33,442 bases of DNA, taken from contig CAKTXU010000001.1 of NCBI GenBank assembly GCA_934630995.1, positions 1 through 33,442 of the forward strand, written 5' to 3'. Within the stretch, counting starts at the first letter, position 1; each line of letters starts with the position of its first letter. Source of the stretch: an uncultured Eubacteriales bacterium. Lineage in GTDB: Bacteria > Bacillota > Clostridia > Oscillospirales > Acutalibacteraceae. Of the stretch, positions 4,290 to 30,022 are shown piece by piece. Position numbers and translations under genes: made by a program. A model generated the notes under the pieces. The model was given only the letters and a program-made list of their open reading frames with translations. It made no database searches and was not told the origin of the DNA.

Positions 4290-4322
4290 GGGCATACTTT
4301 TCACAGTCGACCGTGATACGGC

Positions 4323-7596: not shown

Positions 7597-7625
7597 TTTA
7601 CCGGTTTTTGGGTATACGGTATAAT
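7597..7625 (+). promoter_or_regulatory. Putative sigma70 promoter for the sugar-phosphate isomerase gene
   Basis: TTTACC (7597-7602), a 17-nt spacer, then TATAAT (7620-7625), about 78 nt upstream of the ATG at 7703. Confidence 0.5.
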
Positions 7626-7702
7626 GCGGTTGATTTCCCCGGGGGTTTGTGCTATGTTGAAGAAAAACCGCCGCAATGGCGACGGATAAAGGAGAAGCCG
7701 GT

Positions 7703-8575: not shown

Positions 8576-8599
8576 TGACAGGCCCCCGCTCTCTCCAAG

Positions 8600-8625
8600 G
8601 CCGCCGGAAACTCCGGCGGCTTTTT
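8600..8625 (+). terminator. Rho-independent terminator
   Basis: gccgccgga (8600-8608) pairs with tccggcggc (8612-8620) around a 3-nt loop, followed by TTTTT (8621-8625). It lies 25 nt after the stop at 8575. Confidence 0.8.
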
Positions 8626-8679
8626 CGCCTGTAAACTGAGGAACCATGCCGGTCGGGGCCACGGCCTTTAAAGCCCCTG

Positions 8680-8726
8680 AAAAACCACCTGTGAGCCATG
8701 CTGTATGGCCCGCAGGTGGTTTTTTG
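8680..8726 (+). terminator. Second terminator-like hairpin
   Basis: aaaaaccacctg (8680-8691) pairs with caggtggttttt (8713-8724). An inner stem gccat/atggc is present and the hairpin ends in a T-tract. Confidence 0.55.
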
Positions 8727-8823
8727 CTGTATATCCTTTCCTTGTGTTGTCTGGCTAAAATCTCAAAATATGTATGGAAAAAGCCGGATAATTGAAATGA
8801 GTCGATTTTTATCGAGTAATATG

Positions 8824-8852
8824 TTGACGAAAACATAATAAAATGATAAACT
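8824..8852 (+). promoter_or_regulatory. Putative sigma70 promoter of the polysaccharide locus
   Basis: TTGACG (8824-8829), a 17-nt spacer, then TAAACT (8847-8852), inside a markedly AT-rich region about 70 nt upstream of the GTG at 8925. Confidence 0.5.
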
Positions 8853-8924
8853 GTACCCTGCAAAACATGCTGATATTGTTTTTGTATATCGAGTGCTTCC
8901 AGAAATTCGGACAGGAGAGGGACC

Positions 8925-10415
8925 GTGACAGCGAAGAAGATCCAGAGAGATATGACTGTTGATGAAGCGATAGGCGAATGGCTGCTGATGTGCAATGACC
9001 ACTACGACGACAGGACGCTGCGCATCTACGGTCAGGCTGCTGAGCTGATCCAATCGTATATCGGCAATATTTTTTTGAATGAGCTCAATGACGAGATTCT
9101 CAGTCAATATTTTGATAAACTGCATCATCTCACTATCGGCGACACCGGCGTCAAAAACGTATATACCGTGCTCAACGGTGCCTGCAAATACGCCGTGTCT
9201 CAGGGCTTTCTTCCCGTTAACCCGCTGACAGCCTTCCGGCGTAAGGACTTGCTGCAGCTCGGTGAGCGCAAAGAGCGCCGCAGGAAGGAGGAGTTCTTCC
9301 TCAGCCATGAACAGGCCGCCGGGGCCGAAAGACTGTTCCTCAGTATGGCCGACCCGGAGAACACCGCCCTGTATCTCTGTCTCAAGCTGGGCTTCACCCT
9401 GAAAATCATCTCCGCTCTTCGCTGGGGGGATATCGACCTGTCAAAAGCGCGGGTCACGGTGTCCCGCAGCATCGTGCGGGCGGAGAGCAGGAACGCCAAA
9501 GGCGCCGAACGGTTTTCCATGCAGGACATCACGCCTTACACGGCGCCGATTCCCCGGGACGTTTTAACCCGCATTGAGGAACGGGCGGGGCTGTATCCCT
9601 CCGGCAGCTGTTATGTCGCAACCGGCACGGAGGAGTATGCAGCTGCCTTCAACCGGCTGCAGGTACTGCTCCGGTCCTACAACCAGCGGCACAATATCGC
9701 GCCGACCCTGACGGTGGAAACCCTCAGCAGCTTCTATGTGCGCCGGTGTCTGGAATGCGGGATTTCAGCGGAAACGGTGTGCGCCTGGACGGGACGGCGT
9801 TTCCCCAATCAACTCAAAGCGCGGTTTGCGGATTTCATCCCCGACGATGTCGAATTGGCGAACCACCTGCTGGGGCCTGTATATGAATTTATTCCTGCCG
9901 ATACGGTGCGCCGGATGAATCTGCTGATACTGGGGGCGGGCGACCACGGCCACGCGGTGCTGGAGACGGCGCAGGCCAAGGAGATATTCGACAGCATCCG
10001 TTTTCTGGATGACGACCCGCGGAAAACGGAGGCCATCGGCGCGTGTGCGGATTACCGGCAGTATTTGAACGAATACCCGATGGCGTTTCCGGCGTTCGGG
10101 GACAACGAGCTGCGGCGGGAATGGCTGACGCTGCTGGAGGAGGCGGGGTATATCGTGCCGAACCTGATAAGCCCGTCGGCCTATATCAGCCCGTCGGTGA
10201 GCATAGGAGGGGCGTCGATAATCGAGGCGCGTGCGACCGTGGGAACGGGCGTCCACATCGGGCGGGGGGCTATTGTTTCCTCGAATGTGACGCTGGATGT
10301 CGGCGCGGTGGTGGGGGACATGTGCTATATCGCGCCGGGCCTCACCATCCCCAAACGCTGTGTCCTTCCCCACGGCGCCCACGTGGATGCGGAATCCATT
10401 CCTCAGTTTATTTGA
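8925..10415 (+). CDS. Fusion protein: N-terminal tyrosine-recombinase-like fold (SAM-like core-binding plus degenerate catalytic domain, about aa 10-305) joined to a C-terminal NeuD/PglD-like Rossmann plus hexapeptide domain (about aa 330-496)
   Basis: GTG start preceded by GGAGAGGG. The N-terminal part matches integrase patterns (TLRIYGQAAELI..., NVYTVLNGACKYAVSQGFLPVNP, ALRWGDIDL). The C-terminal part (MNLLILGAGDHGHAVLE..., FGDNELRRE..., hexapeptide turns) aligns by eye with the stand-alone acetyltransferase at 12347..12943. No stop codon separates the two parts. Confidence 0.8.
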   Translation: MTAKKIQRDMTVDEAIGEWLLMCNDHYDDRTLRIYGQAAELIQSYIGNIFLNELNDEILSQYFDKLHHLTIGDTGVKNVYTVLNGACKYAVSQGFLPVNPLTAFRRKDLLQLGERKERRRKEEFFLSHEQAAGAERLFLSMADPENTALYLCLKLGFTLKIISALRWGDIDLSKARVTVSRSIVRAESRNAKGAERFSMQDITPYTAPIPRDVLTRIEERAGLYPSGSCYVATGTEEYAAAFNRLQVLLRSYNQRHNIAPTLTVETLSSFYVRRCLECGISAETVCAWTGRRFPNQLKARFADFIPDDVELANHLLGPVYEFIPADTVRRMNLLILGAGDHGHAVLETAQAKEIFDSIRFLDDDPRKTEAIGACADYRQYLNEYPMAFPAFGDNELRREWLTLLEEAGYIVPNLISPSAYISPSVSIGGASIIEARATVGTGVHIGRGAIVSSNVTLDVGAVVGDMCYIAPGLTIPKRCVLPHGAHVDAESIPQFI

Positions 10416-10491
10416 TGGAATATGGAGAGCTTCGTCTGATAAATGGATTTGCCCATAAGGTAATAAACCTGCGAAAACTTAGAGGTACGAA

Positions 10492-11685
10492 ATGAAATTG
10501 AGAGCGTTTGAGAAAAGACTATATCTGTCCTCACCGACGATGCATGGGGATGAACTTATCTATATGACAGAGGCGTATAAGACAAACTGGATGTCCACGA
10601 TAGGGGCGAATATTGATGAGGTGGAACGGTTTGTTGGTGAGAAGTTGGGAGGCCAATATGCCCTCGCGCTCTCCTGTGGCACTGCTGCTTTGCACCTTGC
10701 GGTGAAACTCGCAGGAGTAAAGCCGGGGGACTACGTTTTTTGTTCTGATATGACCTTCGCGGCCACGGTAAATCCTGTCGTTTATGAGGGCGGCATACCT
10801 ATTTTTATCGATACTGAACGAGATACGTGGAATATGGATCCGGTGGCGTTGAAGAAAGCGTTTGTCCTCTATCCCCACGCAAAAGTCGTTATTGCAGCCA
10901 ACCTGTATGGAACACCCGCTAAACTCGACGTGATAAAAGCTGTTTGCGACGAATTCGGCGCCGTCTTGATTGAGGACGCCGCCGAATCTCTAGGAGCCAT
11001 CTTCAAAGGGAAACAAACCGGTACTTTCGGCAAGTACAACGCCATTTCCTTTAATGGAAACAAAATCATCACCGGCTCTGCCGGCGGTATGCTTTTGACC
11101 GATGATAGAGAGGCGGCCGACCATGCCCGCAAAATTTCAACGCAAGCAAGAGACGCCGCCCCTTGGTATCAACACAGTGAAATCGGCCATAATTACCGCA
11201 TGTCAAACGTGACCGCGGGAGTTGTAAGAGGACAGTTGCCCCATCTGGAAGAGCATATTGCGCAGAAGAAAGCGATTTATGAAAGATACAGGGAGGGCTT
11301 CAGGAATCTTCCGGTTATCATGAATCCCTTCGATGCCGAAAACGCCGAGCCGAATTACTGGCTGTCTTGTCTACTTATCGGCAAAGAAGCCATGTGTGAG
11401 CAGCGCAGAACGCATTGCCAGGCAAGCTATGAACCGGAACAAGGGAAATCCTGTCCTGCGGAAATTCTCGAAGCACTGGATAAGCAGAATGCGGAGGGCC
11501 GCCCTATTTGGAAGCCCATGCATATGCAGCCAGTTTATAAAGATAACATTTTCATCCCTGCAAATACCGGCGATGATGTCGGCGCGGATATTTTCAATCG
11601 CGGTCTGTGTCTGCCGAGCGATATCAAAATGACGCCTGAAGAGCAGGATATCGTCATGGAGGTCGTCAAATCCTGCTTTGAGTAA
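10492..11685 (+). CDS. DegT/DnrJ/EryC1/StrS family PLP-dependent sugar aminotransferase (PglE/EpsN-like)
   Basis: YLSSPTMHGDE..., ALSCGTAALHLA, IEDAAESLGA, SFNGNKIITGSAGGMLL (PLP lysine) and HNYRMSNV are present. AGAGGT RBS. Confidence 0.93.
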   Translation: MKLRAFEKRLYLSSPTMHGDELIYMTEAYKTNWMSTIGANIDEVERFVGEKLGGQYALALSCGTAALHLAVKLAGVKPGDYVFCSDMTFAATVNPVVYEGGIPIFIDTERDTWNMDPVALKKAFVLYPHAKVVIAANLYGTPAKLDVIKAVCDEFGAVLIEDAAESLGAIFKGKQTGTFGKYNAISFNGNKIITGSAGGMLLTDDREAADHARKISTQARDAAPWYQHSEIGHNYRMSNVTAGVVRGQLPHLEEHIAQKKAIYERYREGFRNLPVIMNPFDAENAEPNYWLSCLLIGKEAMCEQRRTHCQASYEPEQGKSCPAEILEALDKQNAEGRPIWKPMHMQPVYKDNIFIPANTGDDVGADIFNRGLCLPSDIKMTPEEQDIVMEVVKSCFE

Positions 11686-11705
11686 ATACATAAGTTGGAG
11701 ATAGT

Positions 11706-12350
11706 ATGTACGCAAAATTTTTTAAAAGATTTATCGATTTTTGGCTGTCGTTGACGGCACTCATCGTGCTGTTGCCGCTGCTGTTATTTCTGATAATAGC
11801 CGGAGCAATCGCCATGCGCGGCAACCCGTTCTTTGTGCAGCCAAGACCGGGTAAGAAGGGAAAAGACGGCCGGGAAAAGATATTTTGTCTGATCAAATTC
11901 CGCACCATGAGCAATAAGAGGCGTCCGGATGGAGGTCTCCTGCCGGATGAGCAAAGGCTTACATCATACGGCAGAATGCTGCGGAACACATCGCTCGACG
12001 AGCTTCCCGAACTGTGGAACATCCTAAGGGGAGATATGGCTTTGGTCGGTCCCAGGCCGCTGTTGGTCCAATATTTGCCCTTGTATTCGGAAGAACAGCG
12101 CCGCCGCCACGATATCCGCCCCGGCCTCACCGGCTATGCACAGGTGCATGGACGCAATACGCTTTCCTGGGATGAGAGATTCCGACTGGATGTCGCCTAT
12201 ATAGAGAAAATCTCTTTACGCGGTGATATGAGAATTCTTTTTGATACGATCAGAATCGTGCTGAAACGAGAGGGTATCTCTTCCGATGTTTCGGCGACGA
12301 TGGAAGTATTTCAGGGAGCACCTGTGAACAGTGAGGAAATCCACGTATGA
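11706..12350 (+). CDS. Small initiating phosphoglycosyl transferase ('bacterial sugar transferase', PglC/EpsL-like)
   Basis: FKRFIDFWLSLTALIVLLPLLL..., FVQPRPGKKGK.F.LIKFRTM, LDELPELWNILRGDMALVGPRPLL and KPGLTGYAQV-type motifs. GGAG RBS. Confidence 0.93.
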   Translation: MYAKFFKRFIDFWLSLTALIVLLPLLLFLIIAGAIAMRGNPFFVQPRPGKKGKDGREKIFCLIKFRTMSNKRRPDGGLLPDEQRLTSYGRMLRNTSLDELPELWNILRGDMALVGPRPLLVQYLPLYSEEQRRRHDIRPGLTGYAQVHGRNTLSWDERFRLDVAYIEKISLRGDMRILFDTIRIVLKREGISSDVSATMEVFQGAPVNSEEIHV

Positions 12351-12943
12351 ATAGGCGGCGGTTGATCATTATAGGCGCCGGCGGCCATGGCAGGGTCATG
12401 GAAGATGTCGCAGGATTGTCAGGTTACACCGATATAGCCTTCCTCGACGATAAACTACCCGTGCTCGGAAAGGTAAAGGATTTTGTCCGCTATGTGACTG
12501 CTTCAGACTTTTTTGTGGCGATTGGGGACAATGCCGTTCGTGAACGAATTTTCACGGAGTTATCCGAACATCATGCAACGATAGTGAAGTTGCTTCATCC
12601 CAAAGCTGTGATTGCGGATGGTGTCACCATAGGCGCCGGCACGGCAGTCATGGCGGGTGCCGTCATCAATCCCGGAGTCCGAGTAGGCGACGGGGTGATT
12701 GTCAATACCTGCAGCTCCATCGATCATGACTGCACCATCGAGGCGTTCACCCACATCTCCGTCGGAGCGCATCTTGCAGGGACTGTTCATACAGGCAGGC
12801 GTACTTTCGTGGGAATGGGTGCCAACATCATCCATCAAGTGACCATATGCGCTGATTGCGTGATAGGAGCTGGAACAGCCGTGGTGAAGGATATCGATGA
12901 ACGCGGCACATATGTCGGAGTGCCCGCCAAACGGATAGATTAG
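12347..12943 (+). CDS. NeuD/PglD/EpsM-type sugar N-acetyltransferase (left-handed beta-helix)
   Basis: ATGA overlap with the upstream gene. RLIIIGAGGHGRVMEDVA, AIGDNAVRERI, SSIDHDCTIEAFTHISVGAHLAG and the terminal YVGVPAKRID closely resemble PglD-type enzymes, including the catalytic His context. Confidence 0.9.
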   Translation: MNRRRLIIIGAGGHGRVMEDVAGLSGYTDIAFLDDKLPVLGKVKDFVRYVTASDFFVAIGDNAVRERIFTELSEHHATIVKLLHPKAVIADGVTIGAGTAVMAGAVINPGVRVGDGVIVNTCSSIDHDCTIEAFTHISVGAHLAGTVHTGRRTFVGMGANIIHQVTICADCVIGAGTAVVKDIDERGTYVGVPAKRID

Positions 12944-12987
12944 GAATATAAGCCGCCTCATACTCGTTCCATACATAGGAGGACGTT

Positions 12988-14265
12988 TTGAAAATTGCCA
13001 TCATTGCGCAATATCTGGGAGATATTGCGCATCCCGAAACCTTCAACAGCCGGTTTCTGACCCTGGCGGACATGCTTACCGCACGGCAGCACAGCGTGGA
13101 AATTATCACAAGCGATTTTATTCACAGCATAAAACGGCATGTTTTCGATGTATCCACCTATAAAGAGTGTAAACTGACAACGCTGCATGAGCCCGGCTAT
13201 GCAAAAAATATTTGTATGAAACGGTTTTTTAGCCATTATATCCTTTCCAGAAATCTGCGAAAGCGGCTGAAGCAAACGGAAAAGCCGGATGTCATCTATT
13301 GCGCCGTCCCCTCCCTGGATTTTGCATTCGAAGCGGCAAAATTCGCACGGAAACATCGCATTCCTTTAATTATCGATATACAGGATTTATGGCCGGAAGC
13401 CTTTGAGATGGTGGCTAAAATTCCCGTGGCCGGAAAAATGATGTTTTATCCCTTCCGGCGGCGGGCCAATGCCGTATACGCGGCGGCGGACGAAATCATA
13501 GCGGTTTCTGAGACATATGCACGGCGGGCTTTGCAGGTGAATAAAAAATGTGAAAAAGCGGGTGTCGTGTTTCTGGGAACAGAATTATCGAAGTTTGACC
13601 GATTTAAAACCACGGTATCTCCTATTCATAAACCCGCGGAAGAAATCTGGCTGGGCTATGCCGGGACACTCGGGCACAGCTATGATTTAAAGACGGTTTT
13701 TAACTGTCTTAGCCGGTTAAAGGACAAACCTTTTTACAAACGGCTGAAACTGGTCGTTATCGGTGACGGACCTCTGCGGCGGGAGTTAGAGGACTACGCG
13801 AACGTACTCGCGTTAAATGTCCTGTTTACGGGAATGCTGCCTTACGAACAGATGGTGTCCGTGCTCTGCAGGTGTGATGTGGCGGTCAATCCTATCAAAA
13901 AGAATTCTGCTGCTTCTATTATCAACAAACACGCTGATTACGCCGGCGCAGGGCTCCCGGTATTGAACAGCCAGGAAAATGTCGAGTACAGAAACCTGAT
14001 TGACGAGTATGATATGGGGTTGAGCTGCACATGTGAATGTGCCAAAGATATGGCTGAAAAGCTGACGGTCCTTATCAGCAGCCGTGAAATGAGATTGCGA
14101 ATGGGCGTGCGGGCAAGAAAATGCGCGGAAGAGAAGTTCGACAGAAAAAACACCTACAGCTTGATTGTCGAAACAATTGAAAAATTTAACCAAGAGGGAA
14201 AGAGACGTATTGGCAACGATAAAAGAACATCAGCAGGTTTTGCTGGAGCTCTTAACGGAGTTTGA
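12988..14265 (+). CDS. Glycosyltransferase, GT4 (GT-B, group 1)
   Basis: TTG start 4 nt after AGGAGGA. MKIAIIAQYLG..., GTLGHSYDL, VIGDGPLR... and the NPIKKNSAASIINKHADYAGAGLPVL (E/N-x7-E-like) region. The last ~33 codons overlap the next gene. Confidence 0.85.
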   Translation: MKIAIIAQYLGDIAHPETFNSRFLTLADMLTARQHSVEIITSDFIHSIKRHVFDVSTYKECKLTTLHEPGYAKNICMKRFFSHYILSRNLRKRLKQTEKPDVIYCAVPSLDFAFEAAKFARKHRIPLIIDIQDLWPEAFEMVAKIPVAGKMMFYPFRRRANAVYAAADEIIAVSETYARRALQVNKKCEKAGVVFLGTELSKFDRFKTTVSPIHKPAEEIWLGYAGTLGHSYDLKTVFNCLSRLKDKPFYKRLKLVVIGDGPLRRELEDYANVLALNVLFTGMLPYEQMVSVLCRCDVAVNPIKKNSAASIINKHADYAGAGLPVLNSQENVEYRNLIDEYDMGLSCTCECAKDMAEKLTVLISSREMRLRMGVRARKCAEEKFDRKNTYSLIVETIEKFNQEGKRRIGNDKRTSAGFAGALNGV

Positions 14266-15058
14266 CAGAGTCTGTAAAAAGCACGACATTCCCTATATGC
14301 TGTTTGCCGGAAGCGCTTTGGGTGCCGTTAGGCATCAGGGCTTTATTCCATGGGATGACGATTTGGATATCGTTATGCTGCGGCCTGCTTACAATCGCTT
14401 TCTTGCGGTGGCGTCGGATGAGTTATCTGCGAACAAGTATTTTGTTCAGGCGGAGTTCTCTTCCCATTGGCCGATGTACTTTTCAAAATTACGAAAAAAC
14501 CATACCGCCTGTCTTGAAAAGTATCATCCGAAGGACAGTGAGACACATCAGGGAATATATATCGACATCTTTCCCTGCGACAATGCGTCCGAATGCGCAT
14601 TTATCAGGAGGCTGCAATATTATTGCTCCCGGATTGTCATTGCGAAATCCATGCTGAAGCGCGGGTATGATACAAACAGTCATTTCAAAAAGCTGGCGGT
14701 ATCCGTATCCCGGTTTTTTCCTATGAACCCTTTTTACAACATAGTGGTAAGGCGCACAAAGAAGGATTCCGAGCTGGTGCATACGTTTTTCGGCGGTACC
14801 TCCCGATACCAAAAAGGCGTGTATCCGAGGGCCTGGTTTGAGGATGTGAAGGAAACCCGCTTTGAGAACTTAACGGTTCCCATTTCCGCCCATTATGACC
14901 TGTTATTGCGCACCTTGTATGGAGACTATATGACCATTCCGCCGGAGGAAGATCGAACGGTCCATGCCATTCTGGTGGATACGGAGCGTTCCTATACGGC
15001 ATACGCGCATTACCGCGACGATATGGAATTTGAAGTGTATACGAGAAGCATACGTTAA
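14165..15058 (+). CDS. licD: LicD family phosphotransferase (cholinephosphotransferase / polyol-phosphate transferase family)
   Basis: LLELLTEFDRVCKKHDIPYMLFAGSALGAVRHQGFIPWDDDLDIVM, IDIFPCD and LYGDYMTIPPEE are the LicD signature. The start is uncertain: TTG at 14165 or TTG at 14210, with no upstream ATG. Confidence 0.88.
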   Translation: MSKQLKNLTKRERDVLATIKEHQQVLLELLTEFDRVCKKHDIPYMLFAGSALGAVRHQGFIPWDDDLDIVMLRPAYNRFLAVASDELSANKYFVQAEFSSHWPMYFSKLRKNHTACLEKYHPKDSETHQGIYIDIFPCDNASECAFIRRLQYYCSRIVIAKSMLKRGYDTNSHFKKLAVSVSRFFPMNPFYNIVVRRTKKDSELVHTFFGGTSRYQKGVYPRAWFEDVKETRFENLTVPISAHYDLLLRTLYGDYMTIPPEEDRTVHAILVDTERSYTAYAHYRDDMEFEVYTRSIR

Positions 15059-15111
15059 CAAGGAAGTAATGCCGAAAGGCTTACTATAATACGCTTAAAG
15101 GAGAGGAACCC

Positions 15112-18100
15112 ATGAAACACAGCAAAGCATACCGCGCGCTATCCATCGTTTTGTGTCTGCTCATGCTGCTTAGTGCGATGCCGCTTGCGGTATTTGCAAC
15201 GGGTGCAGAAACATCCCTGACCATTGCCTCGACCAAGACCTCAGCTCTGGCGCCGGGCGTACAGGAGCAGGAGATAGTGGCATATGATGCGCAGGGCAAA
15301 CGCATCGTCTACTATGCAATTTCGGCAGATATCGCGACAAACAGCGACGTCCTTGTCAAGGCCAACTACCATGACAACGACAATACAGGCGTTTGGGGCA
15401 AGGCGACCGTTATGGAGCAGGCGTCGGCCGCAAAAGAAAAACGCGGGTACAATGTCGTCGCGTCCACTAACGCCTCCTATTACAATGTATCAACAGGCCA
15501 GCCCACCGGCGCTTTCGTCATGGAAGGCGTCAATATCAACGGCAACAGTATGGGGAACAGCTATGAGTTCTTCGCCGTCATGAAAGACGGCACCGCTATG
15601 ATTGGGAAAAGAGGGACGTTCAGTCAGTATGCGGACAATGTCCAGGAAGCGGTCGGCGGTTACCGTATGCTGGTCTGGGACGGTCAGATAGTTTCCGGAC
15701 TTGATACGACGAACAAATATCCCCGCTCGACTGTCGGCATCAAGGCGGACGGCAATGTGGTGCTGATGGTGGCTGACGGCAACCAGAGCCCTTACTCCGT
15801 CGGCCTCAACTATCAGGAGCAGGCGGAAATCATGCTGAGCCTGGGCTGCGTCGCGGCCATTGAGCTCGACGGCGGCGGATCCGCCACCTATGCGGCAAAG
15901 CTGGAGGGTACGGATGAGGTTGTCGTCAGAAACAGCTGTTGTGACGGCACCGTGCGTTCCGTTTCCAATACGATTATGGTCATTTCCACGGCTGCTGCGG
16001 ACGGGACATTTGACCATGCCAACCTCAGCACGGAATATGCGTTCCATGCGCCGCACTCCCAGGTAAGGATTGCCGCCACAGGTGCGGACAAGGGCGGACA
16101 CAGCGCTGAAATCCCCCCCGATGTGACCTGGACGCTGTCCAACGACTCCTACGGAACCATCGCCGACGGGGTTTTCAGCTCCAACGGAAAAACCGGTACG
16201 GTTACGGCGCAAATGCTGCACGGGGGCAAGGTGGTCGGTGAGCTGGATATCACCCTTGTCAATCCCACCTCCATCGCCTTCTCCTCCTCCGCCAAGACCG
16301 TTCCCTACGGTAAGTCCTCGGACATGACCATAACGGCCATGTACAATGGCGCGGAGGTGTATGCGACGGCCGACGCCTACGCCTTTACCCTGTCCGACAC
16401 GGCGGCGGGAAACATGAACGGCTTTACCTTTACCGCTGCCGAAGACGAGTCGATTGGCGGCGCGACCCTGACGGCCGCCTACCGGTACGCCGACGCCCTG
16501 GACCCGATAGCGGTTACTATCACCTTCGGCAAGGGCTCCGATATTCTGTTCGACTTTGAGAACGCGGACATCTCCGACTGGACCGATTATTACGGCATGG
16601 TGAACTCCGGGTACACCGGCGGATATACCAACATCTATTCGACCACTGAGTCTGGAAACTACTCGTCCAATGTAAATATGGATACCTTTCTGGCTACCAG
16701 GGAAAACGGCGGCCAGGTCAAAAACGGCCAATATTCCTTGGGCGTTACGATGGATTATCTGCAGAGTACGGAGCACGGAGAATGGCAGTACGCCTATCTG
16801 TACTATCTGGGCGATTTGCTGACCTACCGCGATGTGAAGAACGGCGTAAACGGCACCCGCCTCGGCATGTGGATGTACATACCGCAGGAGGCGGTCGGCA
16901 GTTGCGCCAGGCTCGCCTATACCTATGAGACTGCCGACGGAAAGCTCAACACCGCTTACCTCTATTTCACCTACCAGTATGTCGACAAGGGCTTTTCCAA
17001 ACTAACCTCAGAAAACATCCCCGAGGCCGGATGGGCTTATGTCTACTGCGATTTGGACGCCATATCCAAGACTTATGTGACCAGCAGCGTCTATGGGGCG
17101 CGGCAGGACGGCGCCAGGACAGATTATGCCCCGGCCTTCATCCAGTTCATCGTCTCCTCTTCCGCCTACGGAGCGGAAAGATGCACCTTCTATATCGACG
17201 ACATCACTCTGGATTACAGTGACGTTGTCGACGACCGGGACGCACCGCTTGTGAGCAACCCGCTGGTGTTGGACGACCTTAACAGCTATGCGCTGGACGG
17301 CCGTACCATCGGCTTCAACACTATCAGCGTAACAGCGGATGTCGCGGAAGATATGTCCCATGGAGACAACTTCACGGGACTAAATCCGACAACCGCGCAG
17401 ATTTATGTAGACGGTCAGGCTGTCACGACGAATTACGCCGCGGGCAAAATTTCCGCGGCCGGCATCGTTCTTCCCGACGGCACGCATGATATTGCCTTTG
17501 AGATCGCCGATAACCAGGGCAATTATACAAGAGTTACAAGGCAGATCGTCATTGCCGCCGGCAGCAGCTATCCCGTCGTCTCCCTTGAGGGTCAGGCTCT
17601 TGAGGCAGGATTACTGAAAACAGGCGCGCAGTATAACCTTCTCCTCAAGACGTCGGATGTATCCAAAATACAGAGCATCACCACCACCATCTGGCTGAAC
17701 AGCTCCTCCACCTGGGAGCTGGAGCACATGACCGTGCTGAACGGTTTCACCTCAACCTATACCGTCGATAGGAATGCTTGCACCGCGACCATCACTCTGA
17801 CCAGAACCGGTAGCAGCGCCGCAACGGGCGAGGCAGTGTTAGCGACCATCCCCGTGCGCAACTGGTACTGGAACGGCAGTGCCGGCGTGGACGCGGCGAC
17901 ACAGTGGAATTCCAAAAACCATGCACCGCAAATCATCCTGAGCTATAAGGTCAAATCCGGTGCGGTGGCCTATATTGACGGATATACCGTCGACGCGAAC
18001 AATTACGTGGCCGGCTTCTCCAATACGAAAACAGATGTGGAAACCGAATTGAACAGCAGTATCGCCAACCTGAAAAACACCATTGGTACTTGGCATACCC

Positions 18101-20334
18101 ATACCGCGGCTGCGATTGCCGATAAGGCGGCGACCTGCACCGAGGTAGGCTATATCGGGCGCACGGTTTGCTCCGTGTGCAACTCGGTTGTCGACTGGGG
18201 CGAAACGCTTCCCGCCACAGGCCACAACTATATTGTCATCGACAACAAATTGACCTGTGCCAACTGTCATGAAGTCATGAACGGCGAGTACGAAGGCAAA
18301 ATTTACATCGACGGCGTTATTGCCGAGGGCTGGGTCAACGGCAATACCTATTATGCCGACGGCGTCATGGTAACCGGCGCCTATGTCATCGGCGGCGTTG
18401 CCTATGTATTCGATGATAACGGTATTTATCAGCCCGACGCGCTTTTCTCCGGATTCATCGATACACCCCGGGGACGGATGTATTTTCTCTCCAACGACAG
18501 CTATATCACAGGATACAGCTATATCTCCAACACCCCGTACTATTTCGATGGGAAAGGGCTTGCCTATGACGGTGAATATGTCATAGGCGGAGAAACCTGC
18601 CTTTTCGAAAAGGGCGTATTCGTCAGCGCAGCATCCTCCGACGTCGTTCTCGCAGGCTGGGCGGGGGTTGAGGCCCATTTTGTCCTTTATGCAAACGGCA
18701 CCTTGAAATTCAGCGGCAGCGGCGATATGTACTACCATCAGTCCAACGCGACCATTCCCTGGGCCAAGCTGAGAGAGTCCATCACCCGGGTGGAAATCGG
18801 TAAGGACATCACCTCCATCGCTAGATTTGCGTTGGCTCATGCGTATTATGTCGAGGAAATTGTATTTGAAGAGGGCAGTAAACTGGAAACCATCGGTTAT
18901 CAGTCTTTCCACTATTTAAACCGAATCAAAGAATTGATTCTGCCCGATTACGTCAAGACGATTGAGTGGTGTGCTTTCGGCTACTGGACAAGCCTCAAGA
19001 GTATTTATTTGCCGGATAGCTTGGAAAGCATAAATGAAAAAGCTTTTGAAAAACATAACGCTGACCTGGTATTACAGGTTGCCGAAGGTACATATGCCGC
19101 GCAGTTCGCTGAAAAATATGGATTTAAAGTTCAGCTCCGTGAAAAAGTACCACAGGTAGTGGCTCAGGGCGCCTGCGGACAGACCGCCGTCTGGACGCTG
19201 TACGATAACGGAACGCTTGAAATTTCTGGCATGGGCGCGATTGCCGACTACGGCTATTCCAAATACGGCGCGAATGCGGCACCCTGGGCGTTGTACAGAG
19301 AAGAAATCAAGACGGTTGTGATAGGCAAGGACATCACGGTCATCGGTGAGTTCAGCTTCTATCAGTGCACGGCCCTCGCCTCTCTCATATTTGAAGAGGG
19401 CAGCAAGCTCGAGGTCATCGGCAAGGGCGCGGTCGGCTATTGCAGCAGTCTCGAAACGGTGACGCTTCCCGCGTCCTTGAGGGAAATTGCGGACAATGCG
19501 TTCTACTTCTCCGGCCTCAGGACGGTGGCGTTTGAGGAGAACAGCGTCCTTGCGATAATCGGCTCCTATGCGTTCAGAGACAACACGTCCTTAGTCAGCC
19601 TCTTTATTCCCGAAACCGTTGAGGAACTCGGGTCCAGCATCCTGTACAACAGCAATGAGGCGACCGTTCAGGTGGCGGATGACACATACTCCTATGACTA
19701 TGCGGTAAAAAATCGTTTCAAGATGGAGGTCAGACCGCATTCTCCGCGGGTAAAAGCAAGCGGCGCCTGCGGACAGACCGCCGTCTGGACGCTGTACGAT
19801 AACGGAACGCTTGAGATTTCTGGCATGGGCGCGATTGCCGACTACGGCTATTCCAAATACGGCGCGAATGCGGCACCCTGGGCGTTGTACAGAGAAGAAA
19901 TCAAGACGGTTGTGATAGGCAAGGACATCACGGTCATCGGTGAGTTCAGCTTCTATCAGTGCACGGCCCTCGCCTCTCTCATATTTGAAGAGGGCAGCAA
20001 GCTCGAGGTCATCGGCAAGGGCGCGGTCGGCTATTGCAGCAGTCTCGAAACGGTGACGCTTCCCGCGTCCTTGAGGGAAATTGCGGACAATGCGTTCTAC
20101 TTCTCCGGCCTCAGGACGGTGGCGTTTGAGGAGAACAGCGTCCTTGCGATAATCGGCTCCTATGCGTTCAGAGACAACACATCCCTAGAAACCGTTTATA
20201 TCCCTGACGGCGTCACCCATATCGGCTCTGCTATTTTCTATGTATGCGGTGAAAATGTTACCGTATATGTTGCGAATAACTCCTTAGCGCATCAGTACGC
20301 GGTAAAAAACGGCATTCATGCGGTTGTTCGTTGA
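15112..20334 (+). CDS. 1,740-aa secreted multidomain surface protein: signal peptide, phosphodiester glycosidase (NAGPA-like) domain, Ig-like/CBM-like regions, Cys4 motif, wall-binding repeats, three BspA-type LRR modules
   Basis: AAAGGAGAGG RBS. Signal peptide MKHSKAYRALSIVLCLLMLLSAMPLAVFA|TGAE. The span of about nt 15300-15990 (NASYYN...GAFVMEG...YPRSTVGIKADGNVVLMVADG...AAIELDGGGSATY) matches the phosphodiester glycosidase family. GWVNGNTYYADG... repeats lie at about 18300-18620. LRR_5/BspA-like modules (GKDITSIG..AF..C..L..I) run from about 18640 to 20331. Confidence 0.92.
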   Translation: MKHSKAYRALSIVLCLLMLLSAMPLAVFATGAETSLTIASTKTSALAPGVQEQEIVAYDAQGKRIVYYAISADIATNSDVLVKANYHDNDNTGVWGKATVMEQASAAKEKRGYNVVASTNASYYNVSTGQPTGAFVMEGVNINGNSMGNSYEFFAVMKDGTAMIGKRGTFSQYADNVQEAVGGYRMLVWDGQIVSGLDTTNKYPRSTVGIKADGNVVLMVADGNQSPYSVGLNYQEQAEIMLSLGCVAAIELDGGGSATYAAKLEGTDEVVVRNSCCDGTVRSVSNTIMVISTAAADGTFDHANLSTEYAFHAPHSQVRIAATGADKGGHSAEIPPDVTWTLSNDSYGTIADGVFSSNGKTGTVTAQMLHGGKVVGELDITLVNPTSIAFSSSAKTVPYGKSSDMTITAMYNGAEVYATADAYAFTLSDTAAGNMNGFTFTAAEDESIGGATLTAAYRYADALDPIAVTITFGKGSDILFDFENADISDWTDYYGMVNSGYTGGYTNIYSTTESGNYSSNVNMDTFLATRENGGQVKNGQYSLGVTMDYLQSTEHGEWQYAYLYYLGDLLTYRDVKNGVNGTRLGMWMYIPQEAVGSCARLAYTYETADGKLNTAYLYFTYQYVDKGFSKLTSENIPEAGWAYVYCDLDAISKTYVTSSVYGARQDGARTDYAPAFIQFIVSSSAYGAERCTFYIDDITLDYSDVVDDRDAPLVSNPLVLDDLNSYALDGRTIGFNTISVTADVAEDMSHGDNFTGLNPTTAQIYVDGQAVTTNYAAGKISAAGIVLPDGTHDIAFEIADNQGNYTRVTRQIVIAAGSSYPVVSLEGQALEAGLLKTGAQYNLLLKTSDVSKIQSITTTIWLNSSSTWELEHMTVLNGFTSTYTVDRNACTATITLTRTGSSAATGEAVLATIPVRNWYWNGSAGVDAATQWNSKNHAPQIILSYKVKSGAVAYIDGYTVDANNYVAGFSNTKTDVETELNSSIANLKNTIGTWHTHTAAAIADKAATCTEVGYIGRTVCSVCNSVVDWGETLPATGHNYIVIDNKLTCANCHEVMNGEYEGKIYIDGVIAEGWVNGNTYYADGVMVTGAYVIGGVAYVFDDNGIYQPDALFSGFIDTPRGRMYFLSNDSYITGYSYISNTPYYFDGKGLAYDGEYVIGGETCLFEKGVFVSAASSDVVLAGWAGVEAHFVLYANGTLKFSGSGDMYYHQSNATIPWAKLRESITRVEIGKDITSIARFALAHAYYVEEIVFEEGSKLETIGYQSFHYLNRIKELILPDYVKTIEWCAFGYWTSLKSIYLPDSLESINEKAFEKHNADLVLQVAEGTYAAQFAEKYGFKVQLREKVPQVVAQGACGQTAVWTLYDNGTLEISGMGAIADYGYSKYGANAAPWALYREEIKTVVIGKDITVIGEFSFYQCTALASLIFEEGSKLEVIGKGAVGYCSSLETVTLPASLREIADNAFYFSGLRTVAFEENSVLAIIGSYAFRDNTSLVSLFIPETVEELGSSILYNSNEATVQVADDTYSYDYAVKNRFKMEVRPHSPRVKASGACGQTAVWTLYDNGTLEISGMGAIADYGYSKYGANAAPWALYREEIKTVVIGKDITVIGEFSFYQCTALASLIFEEGSKLEVIGKGAVGYCSSLETVTLPASLREIADNAFYFSGLRTVAFEENSVLAIIGSYAFRDNTSLETVYIPDGVTHIGSAIFYVCGENVTVYVANNSLAHQYAVKNGIHAVVR
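19168..19586 (+). repeat. Direct repeat copy 1 (419 bp) inside the surface-protein gene
   Basis: Base-by-base comparison with 19762..20180 (offset 594 nt, in frame) shows identity except A19221 versus G19815, which is synonymous (GAA/GAG). Confidence 0.95.
19762..20180 (+). repeat. Direct repeat copy 2 (419 bp) inside the surface-protein gene
   Basis: See copy 1. Identity collapses abruptly outside these bounds (first mismatches at 19167/19761 and 19587/20181). Confidence 0.95.
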
Positions 20335-20366
20335 CGAATTAGTAATTCCATAAACCTTTCATGTTT

Positions 20367-20406
20367 TAATATGCGGCACAGCGGAGAAACGCTGTGTCGC
20401 ATATTA
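20367..20406 (+). terminator. 17-bp stem-loop after the surface-protein gene (terminator/attenuator candidate, no U-tract)
   Basis: taatatgcggcacagcg (20367-20383) pairs with cgctgtgtcgcatatta (20390-20406) with one G-U pair and a 6-nt loop. It is followed by cacatg rather than a T-run. Confidence 0.45.
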
Positions 20407-20439
20407 CACATGATATATGCATGAAACAGGAGCGTTTCC

Positions 20440-21219
20440 ATGAATATACAGACGTTGGTGGTGACCACCGACCAAAAGGATTATTCCCTGTTGAAAAAAA
20501 TGAATATACAGACGCCGGCCATTGTCGGTAACCAGTGTGACCGCGATGAAATCGAGGAATTTTCCTATGGCGGTAATCCCGTAAAATGGCTTTCTCTCCA
20601 TGAACGAGGCGTGGGGCTGAATAGAAATACCGTATTAATGCGCAGCGAGGCGGATGTGTGTGTGCTGGCGGATGACGACATGGTTTTCATCGACGGTTAT
20701 GAAAAAGTAGTCTCCGATTTGTTCGACCGGTATCCCCACACCGATGTCCTGATTTTCAATCTAAACCAAAAGAGCCCCACCATCTATAAAAACAGCAACG
20801 TAAAAAAAATCCACAGATTCAATTATGGCAAATACGGCGCAGCAAGACTTGCCTTCCGGCGCGAAAGCGTACAATTCAACAATATCTGTTTTCATCTCCT
20901 ATTCGGCGGGGGAGCGAAATACAGCAGCGGAGAAGACAGTATTTTTTTGTACGAATGTCTAAAAAGAAAGCTGCGAGTACTAGCTGTTCCGGTTGCTATC
21001 GCCGAATTGACCAGCGATAGGGAATCGACTTGGTTTCAAGGCTATACGGACGACTTCTTTTTTGATAAAGGTGTATTTTACTATGCGCTAGACAGAAACA
21101 TGGGGAGATTTATTGCACTGTACAATTGCTTTAAGCACCGAAACAGCCGCTATAAACAGTATGGCTGGAAAAAAGCTTATCGGCAGATGCTCCGCGGCAT
21201 ACACAGCGTGAAAAAATAG
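20440..21219 (+). CDS. Putative GT-A fold glycosyltransferase (DxD-type)
   Basis: AGGAG RBS 7 nt upstream. LVVTTDQKDYSLLKKMNIQTPAIVGNQCDR... and VLADDDMVFIDGY (DXD) resemble small EPS-locus GT-A transferases. Confidence 0.7.
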   Translation: MNIQTLVVTTDQKDYSLLKKMNIQTPAIVGNQCDRDEIEEFSYGGNPVKWLSLHERGVGLNRNTVLMRSEADVCVLADDDMVFIDGYEKVVSDLFDRYPHTDVLIFNLNQKSPTIYKNSNVKKIHRFNYGKYGAARLAFRRESVQFNNICFHLLFGGGAKYSSGEDSIFLYECLKRKLRVLAVPVAIAELTSDRESTWFQGYTDDFFFDKGVFYYALDRNMGRFIALYNCFKHRNSRYKQYGWKKAYRQMLRGIHSVKK

Positions 21220-21280
21220 CCGTTTCACCCTCCCCCTGCATTTCCCTTACAATCTCTAATACTAACAAGGAACGTAAACT

Positions 21281-22483
21281 ATGAGATACGCCATGCTGTC
21301 CACCCTGATTCCTCCGGAGATGGAAGAAGACTTCCTTAAAAATTCCAGCCATACCATGCAGGATGCCGCCAATGTGCTGCAATGGCATCTTTATGAAGGA
21401 TTCTGTTCAAATATCGGAGAAGATATCCCGCTGTTTAACGTCATGCCGGCGGGGAGCTTCCCACAATATTACAGGCGCCCGCTTATTTTCCAATCCAAAT
21501 TCGGTAAAAACGGCGTCAATATAGGCTTTTGTAATATAAAGCTCATCCGAAATGCCTGTAAGTCTAAGAGAATATACAGCGCTTTAAAGAAATGGTGCAA
21601 ATCGGTTGACGATATAAAAATTCTGTTTGTTTACACGATAGCCTCTCCCTTTCTCAAAGCGGTTACCAAGATAAAGCAGGACTTCCCAACGGTGAAGATT
21701 TGCGCGATTGTTGCCGACCTGCCGGACATGACCTGCCTGTCGGATAAAAAGAGCCTATTGCAGAGCCTTTTTTCAAAGCGCCAATCGGAAGAGGCCTACG
21801 GGCTTTTATCCTGTATTGACGCATTCGTTTTGCTGACAAAATATATGGCCGATTATATGCATATCGAGCAGCCCTATTGCGTCGTGGAGGGTATCGCCTC
21901 AGTTGCAGAAAGAGAGGTGCCCGTGAGGGAGATCTATAAAGAAGAAAAAATTGTGTTGTATGCGGGAACTTTACATAGAAAATTTGGTGTTTTGCATTTG
22001 TTGGAGGCATTTCGTCAGTTACGCGATGATAATTTCAGATTATGGATATGCGGGGTGGGAGACAGCGAATCCGCGATTAAAGCTGCGGCCGGTGAAGATA
22101 CCCGTATCGTCTTTATGGGGCAGCTTCCCCGCTCGGAAGTTCTGCAATTGCAGAAAAAAGCAACGTTGTTGGTGAACCCGAGACAAAATAACGAAGAATT
22201 TACCAAATACAGCTTTCCCTCAAAAAATATGGAATATCTGTCTTCCGGTAAACCGCTTATTGCCTATAAGCTCGACGGCATACCCGACGAATACGACCCT
22301 TATATATTTTATCCTGCGGATAATTCCGCGGCTTCCTTGGCAGAAAAAATTTTAGAGGTTGCTGCTATGCCCGAAGATATGCTGATACGACATTGTCGCA
22401 AGGCCTACGATTTTGTTTTATCGTCAAAGAATCACATAGTTCAAACAAAAAAGATATTAGAGCTGATAGGAAGAATCGTTTAA
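21281..22483 (+). CDS. Glycosyltransferase, GT-B (group 1 / GT4-like)
   Basis: The C-terminal half (VLYAGTLHRKFGV..., CGVGD, LVNPRQNNEEFTKYSFPSKNMEYLSSGKPLIAY) fits the GT1/GT4 nucleotide-sugar-binding domain. Confidence 0.8.
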   Translation: MRYAMLSTLIPPEMEEDFLKNSSHTMQDAANVLQWHLYEGFCSNIGEDIPLFNVMPAGSFPQYYRRPLIFQSKFGKNGVNIGFCNIKLIRNACKSKRIYSALKKWCKSVDDIKILFVYTIASPFLKAVTKIKQDFPTVKICAIVADLPDMTCLSDKKSLLQSLFSKRQSEEAYGLLSCIDAFVLLTKYMADYMHIEQPYCVVEGIASVAEREVPVREIYKEEKIVLYAGTLHRKFGVLHLLEAFRQLRDDNFRLWICGVGDSESAIKAAAGEDTRIVFMGQLPRSEVLQLQKKATLLVNPRQNNEEFTKYSFPSKNMEYLSSGKPLIAYKLDGIPDEYDPYIFYPADNSAASLAEKILEVAAMPEDMLIRHCRKAYDFVLSSKNHIVQTKKILELIGRIV

Positions 22484-22511
22484 CTACGCAGTGGAACTGA
22501 GGTGAGAAGAT

Positions 22512-23828
22512 ATGGGCTTACAAGTTGGGAAGACACTATCCAGGGTGAATAGCATACAGCCTGCTCAAAATGACATCTGGTTTATAGGGCTGTTTGTTTG
22601 CCTGTGGAGTAGAACGATTTTATTGCAGTTCTTCAAGGCAGTTTTGCTGCGTGTTCCTATCGTGCGTTATGCCGCAGATTTTGTTTTAACGGCGCTTATT
22701 CTCTTTTTTCTTACAATGGCTCTCCCCTACCTGCTGAAAAAGATAAAGCCGTCGGATATATGCCTATATATGCTGTTGATTTTGTTGTTTCTGTGTCACT
22801 ATTTTTTTTATCCATCCAATAGAGCCGATATCTTCGACATCGGCGTTCCCTTTATTTTCATCGTTTTCCCCTATTATTTTGTCGGATTAGGTTTCAACTA
22901 TGAAAGAATGTACCCGCTGTTATACGGCGTTTCCTGTGTAACTATTTTTGCGCAGTTTTTTTATTCCGTTGTTTTAGGGGAAACCATGGACTCGACGACT
23001 TCGGTCTATGTCGGTAACATGACCGCCTCCTACAATTTATTGCCCCATGTATGTGTATTGTTTTTAGATACGGATAAAAGAAAGCCCATTATAAAGATTA
23101 CGGCCGTCATATTAGGCAGCATATTAATAATCGCTTACGGCAGCCGTGGACCTATCGTTTGTCTGGCTTCCTTTGTTTTGCTGTATATCATCTTTTTCAA
23201 AAAACAAAAAAGAAGCTTTCGATACCTTTTGCTCGTGCTGTGTGCGGCTTTAATTATCTGGTTTTCACTTGATTATATACTTGATTTTCTAAATACGGTC
23301 TCCTCAGCGTTAGGATTGAGCACCCGTATCTTTTCAAAAATATCCAGCAATCAGTTTTTCGTTTCTAGCGATCGCGACATAATACGTACCACACTTTACG
23401 GCTATATTGCCGACAAACCGATGGTCGGCTACGGTTTATGCGGAGATCGGGTTATAACCGGCACCTATGCCCACCATCTTGCCATTGAGTTGTGGATATC
23501 CTTTGGCGTTGTGTTGGGCTCCGCCCTTTTGCTGGCCGTTTTCCTCATCATTTTAAAGGGCGTCAGATACAGCGATTTCGGAAGAGAAAAAGGATTCATT
23601 CTGCTGCTCTTCTGTTGCAGCGTAATCAAATTGTTTTTATCGGGTTCTTTTTTGAATGAAAATCTCCTCTTTCTCCTGCTGGGAATCTGTGTCGGTGTAA
23701 TGAGGAAAAAAGCTTGTGAATGCGATTGCTTTAAACAAGTCTTCCATTGCCACAATGCAGTCCTATATAGCCAATATATCCGTACACCATTTGTCCGGCC
23801 GAAAATACGGAAAGGATACCACAAATGA
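22512..23828 (+). CDS. wzy: Wzy-type polysaccharide polymerase / O-antigen ligase-like membrane protein
   Basis: GAGGTGA RBS. The protein has about 10-12 hydrophobic segments, is AT-rich with low conservation, and sits among glycosyltransferases and next to Wzx. This is a family assignment by topology and context. Confidence 0.7.
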   Translation: MGLQVGKTLSRVNSIQPAQNDIWFIGLFVCLWSRTILLQFFKAVLLRVPIVRYAADFVLTALILFFLTMALPYLLKKIKPSDICLYMLLILLFLCHYFFYPSNRADIFDIGVPFIFIVFPYYFVGLGFNYERMYPLLYGVSCVTIFAQFFYSVVLGETMDSTTSVYVGNMTASYNLLPHVCVLFLDTDKRKPIIKITAVILGSILIIAYGSRGPIVCLASFVLLYIIFFKKQKRSFRYLLLVLCAALIIWFSLDYILDFLNTVSSALGLSTRIFSKISSNQFFVSSDRDIIRTTLYGYIADKPMVGYGLCGDRVITGTYAHHLAIELWISFGVVLGSALLLAVFLIILKGVRYSDFGREKGFILLLFCCSVIKLFLSGSFLNENLLFLLLGICVGVMRKKACECDCFKQVFHCHNAVLYSQYIRTPFVRPKIRKGYHK

Positions 23829-25045: not shown

Positions 25046-25134
25046 ATCGCTATTTTGCATCATAGGAAATAATATCCTATAACGGGAATCATATTATGTG
25101 CAGCAAAAATCTATTGAGCAGAAAGATGAGTCGT

Positions 25135-27613: not shown

Positions 27614-27644
27614 AGATTACCAATTAAAAATAAGGAGAACGATT

Positions 27645-28964: not shown

Positions 28965-28966
28965 AT

Positions 28967-30019: not shown

Positions 30020-30022
30020 GCG

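Follow-up and report, generated by a model that had tools for sequence, protein, structure and literature searches.

A recombinase-like fold fused to a degenerate PglD-like domain heads a clostridial polysaccharide operon: a candidate regulator related to promoter invertases

Introduction

Tyrosine recombinases such as the integrases (Int) of Tn916, Tn1549 and lambda, XerA, and XerC/D combine a core-binding domain with a catalytic domain, and promoter invertases with which the locus described here can be compared in function include FimB/FimE, the Tsr recombinases of Bacteroides, and RecV of C. difficile. Class I N-acetyltransferases, among them PglD of C. jejuni, PglB of Neisseria, PerB, VioB, and the NeuD/TIGR03570 group, are built of two lobes, a nucleotide-binding subdomain and a β-helix. 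Here, we describe a gene whose product joins the folds of these two groups of proteins and which is the first gene of a polysaccharide operon. The gene lies at positions 8925..10415 (+ strand) of a 33,442-nucleotide stretch of DNA from an uncultured Eubacteriales bacterium (GenBank assembly GCA_934630995.1, contig CAKTXU010000001.1, positions 1 to 33,442), which is referred to as the window in the following. Its product is referred to as the fusion protein.

The fusion protein fits neither the recombinase nor the acetyltransferase family because the defining catalytic features of both are absent. With the tyrosine recombinases it shares the core-binding and catalytic folds, and some of its relatives also share the arm-type N-terminal domain of the intact invertases found in this analysis. 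It differs from them in that the catalytic residues are replaced, in that a PglD-like module has been added, and in that the gene is the first of the operon downstream of the switch, rather than a separate recombinase gene. With the class I enzymes it shares the two-lobed build, the GxxG, FLDD, and G(D/N)NxxR motifs, and a gene neighborhood with DegT and Bac_transf, but it has Val in place of the catalytic His, Ser in place of a conserved Asn, a helix that is about 33 residues shorter, and a score below the family cut-off.

Two other systems are comparable in kind. UpxY and UpxZ of Bacteroides are locus-specific regulators encoded by the first genes of phase-variable capsule loci and, like these, the fusion gene is the conserved head gene of a long and variable polysaccharide operon. 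A similar place behind an invertible promoter is found for the related loci L001, L081, L099, L087, and L041, whereas the promoter in the window is fixed. The fusion protein comes from a different phylum and is presumed to bind DNA rather than to act by transcription antitermination; the window protein has no match to a NusG/KOW or UpxZ domain in Pfam or NCBIfam. In eukaryotes, genes derived from Cryptons keep an inactive tyrosine-recombinase fold under selection, with a presumed DNA-binding role. Unlike these, the fusion is bacterial, is unrelated in sequence, carries a module derived from a sugar enzyme, and is linked to a switch that is probably run by a sister recombinase.

An earlier interpretation of this DNA from its letters alone (hereafter, the sequence-only reading) knew of no described regulator of this design. 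The literature that we searched likewise gave no description of an inactive recombinase joined to an inactive PglD-like domain, which is not proof of novelty. The kinds of protein concerned (domesticated recombinase, pseudoenzyme regulator, and head-of-locus capsule regulator) are known, and the architecture is so far undescribed.

Results

Two folds without their active sites

The gene is a single intact open reading frame (ORF) of 496 aa with a GTG start and zero internal stops. The AlphaFold2 model of the protein has a predicted local distance difference test score (pLDDT) of 81.5, and both halves are modeled with confidence. Residues 1–110 (8925..9254, + strand) form a SAM-like core-binding domain, modeled as a helical bundle with pLDDT 76–91, of which residues 28–102 match Phage_int_SAM_5 (PF13102) with 23.2 bits against a cut-off of 22.3; this is the only recombinase-side Pfam family that passes for the query. 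Residues 127–305 (9303..9839, + strand) have the fold of the catalytic domain, with a pI (isoelectric point) of 9.1. The window protein has no match to Phage_integrase (PF00589) in Pfam at E ≤ 1; this family is matched by 9 of 15 family members, with a best E-value of 5e-10. A profile built from the N-terminal halves of the family, when searched against the PDB, matched XerA (3.4e-10) and Tn1549 Int (6.6e-7), and a Foldseek search with the model returned Tn1549 Int (8.8e-9) as well as lambda Int, XerA, and Cre.

The catalytic columns were read by alignment with the intact invertases described below, and all catalytic positions turned out to be replaced in the window protein. Arg-I, which lies in TG(M/I)R in the invertases, corresponds to T158 in LGFT; the hairpin Lys of PK(S/T) falls in a gap, with no Lys in residues 201–210; His-I and Arg-II of HxLRH correspond to E265 and S268 in ETLSS; His/Trp-III of LGH corresponds to R291 in TGR; and the nucleophilic Tyr of RYVH corresponds to F301 in RFAD. 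With no residue of the catalytic set left, and Phe in the place of Tyr, strand cleavage by the window protein would be impossible. The full R-K-H-R-H/W-Y set is present in no family member, and a few distant ones (P0005, P0006, and P0014) keep Tyr or one or two Arg.

In the C-terminal half, residues 331–410 (9915..10154, + strand) make up the N-terminal nucleotide-binding subdomain of PglD (PglD_N, PF17836, matched over residues 332–401 at 2e-10 in Pfam), which is the most conserved part of the family. Residues 411–496, plus the stop codon (10155..10415, + strand), form a shortened left-handed β-helix (hexapeptide family PF00132, 3e-6) that lacks the catalytic His and the conserved Asn. TIGR03570 scored 101.4 bits against a cut-off of 160.8, with profile positions 1–165 of 202 aligned. 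The best match, in both sequence and structure, was the acetyltransferase domain of Neisseria PglB (PDB 4m98/4m99; Foldseek 4.6e-12). Compared with the complete PglD encoded at 12347..12943 in the window, the C-terminal half is 32% identical (3e-19), and SSIDHDC of the enzyme stands opposite VTLDVGA.

Class I enzymes are C3 trimers that use a conserved His as base and have a strictly conserved Asn and a CoA (coenzyme A)-responsive Pro in the final turn (PMC9271549). The catalytic His (His125 in PglD) is V459 in the window protein, and the conserved Asn (Asn118) is S452; the motifs, His125, and Asn118 of the PglD reference used for this column numbering agree with the PDB alignments and with PMC9271549. 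After the His column, the window protein has 37 residues compared with 70–71 in real PglD, meaning that about 33 residues of the β-helix are gone, and the short helix lacks the final-turn Pro.

Across the family, the motif MNLLILGAG..G..V.E.A..F..I.FLDD..G..LR is invariant, and PglD positions A12, G16, D35, D36, G56, and R61 are retained in 68 of 68 fused proteins. His125, on the other hand, is retained in 6 of the 68 and Asn118 in none (0/68). The residues found at the His column of fused proteins are R, F, V, K, P, T, M, L, and Y, a diversity that would be expected if the constraint on this position had been released. All eight stand-alone proteins of this “MNLLILGAG” clade have the His, and they too have the short helix. 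Among public proteins, P0016–P0019 belong to the same short PglD-like clade; they have an intact His (VVDHDS) and are fused to a C-terminal APH-type kinase domain (PF01636).

Much of this had been proposed by eye in the sequence-only reading. The substitutions that it listed (Thr158, a missing Lys, Glu265, Ser268, TGR, and Phe for Tyr) are the same as those seen in the alignment with intact invertases, and its alignment of the C-terminal half with the PglD at 12347..12943, with SIDHDC becoming TLDVGA, was reproduced. Neither an intact R-K-H-R-H-Y set nor an intact catalytic His emerged from the profile and structure-based alignments, which bear out the view that both halves are pseudoenzymes. 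The end of the β-helix is indeed missing, as had been noted, but this alone is no proof of inactivity because the His-bearing stand-alone members are equally short.

A conserved and mosaic family

The two halves are connected by a linker (residues 306–330; 9840..9914, + strand) with pLDDT <50 for residues 317–328. The linker ends in the junction RR-MNLLILGAG, which is invariant across the family, and the fused ORF recurs in more than 60 genome loci. A one-genome-per-species scan gave 72 loci, nearly all in Oscillospiraceae and other Clostridia, one of them from an isolate (Dysosmobacter sp., L010). In a large protein collection, we found homologues that are 82–88% identical, plus a tail at 32–38%; public assemblies had no exact copy of the window protein on record. 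The family is small, with about 30–50 clusters at 50% identity; a profile search of 1.84 billion representatives gave 31 clusters at E ≤ 1e-30 and then merged into ordinary recombinases.

The ratio of nonsynonymous to synonymous substitution rates (dN/dS), calculated against L082 and L081, was 0.14–0.20 for the recombinase-like domain, 0.05–0.06 for PglD_N, and 0.11 for the helix; judged by these ratios, purifying selection acts on both halves. A stop or frameshift that splits the frame into two ordinary genes, which the sequence-only reading had named as a possible flaw, is absent from the ORF. The recurrence of the frame in the more than 60 loci, the invariant junction, and dN/dS values well below 1 show that the fusion is real and conserved in related genomes.

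L001 is 97% identical to the window over 9138–10400 only, and its upstream region, first 72 residues, and downstream genes are unrelated. Residues 1–72 are saturated with changes relative to both L001 and L081, whereas the remainder is 87–97% identical in DNA. Within the comparison with L001, the segment encoding residues 125–305 differs by 1 nt in 543, and residues 1–72 and the linker (306–330) are saturated; the linker allele of the window (9840–9914) is that of L081, not that of L001. The gene is thus a recombination mosaic, the conserved body of which may act as an anchor for homologous recombination that swaps promoters and glycan cargo. The allele of residues 1–72 covaries with the upstream region: allele A goes with a fixed promoter (window and L082) and allele B with an invertible one (L001, L081, L099, and L087).

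An invertible promoter in relatives and its remnant in the window

In the four allele-B loci, which are 82–88% identical relatives of the window gene, a promoter cassette of 265–300 bp lies directly before the start codon. Perfect inverted repeats of 25–27 nt flank the cassette in L001, L081, and L099, and these repeats are built like the core sites of tyrosine recombinases, with two inverted 9-bp elements, TTCGTAGAG and CTATACGAA, on either side of a 7-nt spacer. The cassette promoter, TTGACA-17-TGATAAACT, is located at one end of the cassette and is directed away from the gene in L001 and L081 (OFF) and into the gene in L099 and L087 (ON). The inversion is visible in the alignment, where L081 1–136 equals L099 346–210 reversed, at 84.7%. 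L041 has a second type of site; its promoter is directed at the gene, and the segment contains two repeats that include GACCA.

The promoter and leader of the window can be aligned with the cassette of L099 as it stands (ON) and with that of L001 (OFF) once the latter is reverse-complemented. Based on the alignment with L099 and L001, the 5′ leader contains a decayed right-hand core site, TTTGTATAT-CGAGTGC-TTCCAGAAA (8881..8905, + strand), which equates to the right inverted repeat of the relatives, TTCGTATAG-N7-CTCTACGAA, with 12 of 18 specified positions kept (manual count). No left-hand partner of this site was found in the window. Because the right site is decayed, the left partner is lacking, and no site is present within three mismatches, the window is a locked-ON derivative. 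Its promoter is accordingly the locked-ON homologue of the invertible promoter, a relationship that the sequence-only reading had missed. Another inverted pair of 13 nt in the window (8369–8381 and 8776–8788) was considered as a switch and rejected as a chance occurrence, with one arm lying inside the upstream gene and the pair not being conserved in L082.

A TTCGTAGAG-type site was also observed in L103 (202–226), about 800 bp before a DegT gene (1024–1551) that is 70% identical to the DegT gene of the window, with no fusion gene detectable in between. The same switch site may drive loci that do not have a fusion gene.

Invertase ancestry of the N-terminal half

Intact tyrosine recombinases of 374–388 aa carry the same type of site beside or around them. 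In L095, the site is found 54 bp past the recombinase stop codon. In L094 (8700–10148) and L089 (1630–3064), an intact arm-bearing recombinase gene lies between two inverted TTCGTAGAG-N7-CTATACGAA sites that are about 1.4 kb apart, which places the gene on an invertible or otherwise site-bounded segment. The N-terminal halves of the fusions match this intact lineage with E-values of 1e-8 to 1e-15. Intact invertase genes are located directly upstream of the fusion gene in L007, L008, L046, and L042, and more distant recombinase homologues (23–27% identical) are found upstream of the fusion in L063, L064, and L066; none is present in the window. On the strength of these comparisons, we consider the N-terminal half a domesticated copy of a promoter-invertase lineage. 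The phage-integrase layout seen in the sequence-only reading therefore stands as far as the recombinase fold is concerned, with support from the fold search and profiles, but not as a generic phage-integrase relic.

Every N-terminal partner of the PglD-like module is a tyrosine-recombinase module, and the architectures range from a core-binding domain plus catalytic fold, as in the window, through arm plus core-binding plus catalytic fold (P0005) and arm plus catalytic fold (P0014, the model of which has a pLDDT of 83 and a three-strand-plus-helix N-terminus), to the catalytic fold only, which is the commonest form, and the arm domain only, in proteins of about 210 aa. The assignment of the arm domain is based on 41–48% identity to the N-termini of the intact invertases, on alignment, and on the predicted three-strand-plus-helix fold. 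A profile of this domain gave nothing meaningful against the PDB and, in Pfam, only a subthreshold match to the Integrase_DNA domain of Tn916 (E 0.068).

Candidate operators

The motif TGACCA[CT] occurs 5.6 times per kb in the 350 bp upstream of arm-only genes, compared with 0.29 per kb in the rest of these loci, and 1.3 times per kb in the same interval upstream of the arm plus catalytic class. It does not occur upstream of arm-less fusions (0 in 12.6 kb) or of stand-alone genes (0). TGACCA emerged as the top 6-mer without prior choice, with at least two copies in 11 of 15 nonredundant arm-only loci, compared with at most one in shuffled sequences. In the typical layout, a tandem pair with copies 11 bp apart precedes the −35 element and another copy lies just 5′ of the ribosome-binding site. 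Although indirect, these repeats are the strongest evidence suggesting that arm-bearing proteins bind their own promoter regions.

No family-wide operator motif emerged for the arm-less class, where just one subclade showed a palindrome. In this arm-less “CVLDREC” subclade (L004, L018, L020, L027, L029–L031, L033, L034, and L036), TTGTTGTTTTG-N5-CAAAACAACAA is found about 30 bp before the −35 element of a TTGC(T/C)A-17-TATATT promoter and is a candidate operator for the subclade.

Upstream signals of the window gene

The gene upstream of the fusion gene, with an AP_endonuc_2 (xylose-isomerase-like) fold, ends at 8575 and is followed by two terminators. Terminator 1 (8597..8623, + strand) has a 12-bp GC-rich stem (−21.7 kcal/mol, z −4.07), followed by UUUUU, and terminator 2 (8679..8725, + strand) is a long hairpin formed by a 20-nt inverted repeat (−31.1 kcal/mol, z −8.0). 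Terminator 2 has an A-run and a U-run on its two sides and is possibly bidirectional. Both are also present in L082. A dedicated terminator scan called none; RNA folding instead gave both hairpins clearly.

The operon promoter, TTGACG-17-(TG)ATAAACT with an extended TG (8824..8852, + strand), was identified by a consensus scan as the sole sigma-70-like site on the + strand between 8400 and 10700, and it is almost invariant in L082. ORF analysis, folding, and the promoter scan thus agree with the layout described in the sequence-only reading, with one ORF preceded by two terminators and then the only clear promoter. The ribosome-binding site AGGAGAGG (8913–8920, + strand) lies 5–12 nt before the GTG start, the context of which is also kept in L082 and L099. 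The promoter is bracketed by two copies of a direct repeat, TTTTT(..)ATCGAGT, one at 8805..8819, just 5′ of the −35 element, and one at 8876–8893 (both + strand). L082 has the same G-to-A change in both copies, an observation that is anecdotal as it involves two genomes only and may be a coincidence. The repeat is a candidate operator, the only one to emerge for the window protein, and is offered as a lead only.

The operon and its genomic setting

The fusion gene is the first of an operon of about 24 kb, and all genes downstream, to the end of the window, are on the same strand and serve polysaccharide synthesis. Pfam scans of the codirectional polysaccharide genes (10492..33438, + strand) identified a DegT aminotransferase, Bac_transf, the complete PglD (12347–12943), glycosyltransferases, LicD, a NAGPA/BspA leucine-rich repeat protein, Wzy, Wzx, a UDP-Glc dehydrogenase, a CapD-like dehydratase, and epimerases. 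The NAGPA/BspA protein, encoded mid-operon (15112–20334, + strand), has 1740 residues, with a NAGPA phosphodiester-glycosidase domain and BspA-type leucine-rich repeats, and is an unusual passenger for a capsule locus.

In all long contexts (L001–L008), the fusion gene heads a polysaccharide locus. Fused loci could be tested where 1.5 kb or more of sequence follows the gene, which gave 63; in 54 of these, a codirectional Bac_transf or DegT gene follows no more than 5 kb away, in many cases within 25 bp. The gene is thus the first of a polysaccharide locus in nearly all relatives. In L082, the upstream genes are as in the window, but the second gene is different, meaning that the head gene is conserved and the cargo variable.

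In L002 (11174–14314) and L008 (2975–5482), a large DEAD/ResIII helicase with an HA (helicase-associated) domain is encoded between the fusion gene and the glycan genes. In Dysosmobacter sp. HCP28S3_G4, the only cultured carrier (L010), a large serine recombinase gene (3704–5284, − strand) lies upstream of the fusion gene, and the downstream ORFs chosen for analysis (7190–12327) gave no Pfam matches; this copy may therefore have a different setting, possibly a mobile one.

Discussion

That the fusion protein is a DNA-binding regulator of its own locus is the explanation that we favor, at about even chances. DNA binding is proposed because of the descent from an invertase module, the TGACCA repeats at arm-only promoters, and the invertible promoters flanked by core sites in close relatives. 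Ligand sensing is proposed because the nucleotide-binding motifs are fully conserved while the catalytic residues are lost; within this idea, the sensing of acetyl-CoA is the weaker part, as roughly half of the CoA-binding helix is missing. The binding of DNA and the site bound, the direction of regulation, the sensing of a ligand, and the oligomeric state of the protein are inferred.

The proposed mechanism is as follows. The inactive invertase keeps the core-binding and catalytic folds, which form the DNA clamp in tyrosine recombinases, and would contact recombinase-type sites without cutting them. By binding at its own promoter or leader, the first product of the operon would regulate the polysaccharide genes behind it. 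The short β-helix would oligomerize the protein, with a trimer being assumed from the PglD enzymes, and a nucleotide sugar in the conserved PglD-like pocket may tune regulation by a module that itself cannot acetylate. In allele-B strains, the fusion protein could occupy the switch sites and compete with or block, bias, or assist the active invertase, whereas in the locked-ON window its part would be that of a conventional autoregulator or regulator of the operon.

A more specific proposal, which we put forward tentatively and regard as doubtful, is that of a self-reporting lock on phase variation. The protein would be made only when the promoter is ON and would bind the core or arm sites of the invertase, held as an oligomer by its PglD-like helix. 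It would then block or bias re-inversion, with nucleotide-sugar occupancy setting the strength of this effect. Arm-only members and members without inverted repeats, including that of the window, would be derivatives that keep only operator binding. Such a lock, if true, would couple capsule switching to precursor supply.

Several observations weigh against a regulatory role at DNA or at the switch. The TGACCA repeats could serve the arm domain of the invertase and not the fusion protein, and none is present in the 350 bp upstream of the window gene. The core-binding domain of the window protein is acidic (pI 5.5), and a trimer would be geometrically odd on a DNA clamp that is normally dimeric or tetrameric. 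In the whole window, there is no TTCGTAGAG-N7-CTATACGAA site at up to three mismatches, and hence no intact recombinase site. The two orientations, ON and OFF, were seen in different strains and metagenomes, and not as mixed reads from one population. Among all family loci scanned, long inverted repeats upstream were seen only in L001, L081, L099, L041, and possibly L013, and most loci, belonging to the class with an N-terminal half of about 200 aa, have none; inversion control is therefore rejected as the general function of the family. Finally, the His is retained in a few fused members, some of which may still be enzymes.

A role in glycan assembly that does not involve DNA is the alternative that fares best, and we consider it rather unlikely. 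The PglD-like pseudoenzyme would be a scaffold or allosteric partner of the neighboring bacillosamine-type enzymes DegT, Bac_transf, and PglD, perhaps by forming mixed trimers with PglD or by docking on the phosphoglycosyl transferase, and the recombinase-like half would serve a structural or protein-interaction purpose. Such a role would suit the position of the fusion gene, which is almost always immediately 5′ of Bac_transf and/or DegT and which is shared by the His-bearing stand-alone members of the clade, as well as the full conservation of the nucleotide-sugar pocket motifs; a transferase–acetyltransferase fusion is, moreover, known from Neisseria PglB (PDB 4m98/4m99). What it leaves unexplained is that the N-terminal partners are, without exception, DNA-binding modules of invertases, that arm-specific repeats occur in the promoters of arm-bearing members, and that the N-terminal allele travels with the promoter type.

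We find it improbable that the protein is still an enzyme, with a PglD-like half that acylates or acetylates a nucleotide sugar without the His and a recombinase-like half that is accessory. Base-independent mechanisms exist in N-acetyltransferases of the QdtC/WlbB type, which also have a left-handed β-helix. The motifs of the substrate pocket are unchanged, the His persists in 6 of 68 fused proteins, and stand-alone members with the His have an equally short C-terminus. However, the variety of residues that fill the His column is as expected for released constraint, the Asn that is strictly conserved in class I enzymes (for its role, see PMC9271549) is absent in 68 of 68, at least 33 residues of the CoA-binding helix are missing, including the final-turn Pro, and a complete PglD is already encoded in the operon (12347–12943).

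That the fusion protein itself is an invertase with an unorthodox active site, flipping the promoter upstream of it, is very hard to credit. It adjoins invertible promoters in allele-B relatives, descends from an invertase lineage, and has distant relatives (P0005, P0006, and P0014) in which Tyr and one or two Arg survive. However, the window protein and those close to it have lost Arg-I, Lys, His-I, Arg-II, His-III, and Tyr alike, the complete catalytic set is found nowhere in the family, and separate intact invertases exist, sometimes adjoining the fusion gene. An assembly or sequencing artefact, or a functionless integrase pseudogene fused by accident, might be suspected from the subthreshold PF00589 score of the N-terminal half and from the remains of mobile elements close to some relatives (in L001 an rve transposase, in L002 fragments of a resolvase), but this explanation has a negligible chance of being right and is already contradicted by the same fused frame with its invariant junction in more than 60 independent assemblies, the low dN/dS and confident model of both halves, and the absence of any stop or frameshift.

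Oscillospiraceae and related gut Clostridia are abundant and poorly cultivable, and the regulation of their surface glycans is almost unstudied. For these bacteria, the present analysis provides a conserved candidate regulator that heads polysaccharide loci, an invertible promoter defined down to the sequence of its site, and a lineage of invertases by which it is probably flipped. The fusion gene offers a testable analogue, in another phylum, of the logic of UpxY and UpxZ in Bacteroides, and it can serve as a marker for polysaccharide loci in metagenomes. If binding to the switch proves true, the fusion protein would, to our knowledge, be the first known bacterial recombinase that has been domesticated to regulate the switch of its relatives, joined to a pseudoenzyme sensor.

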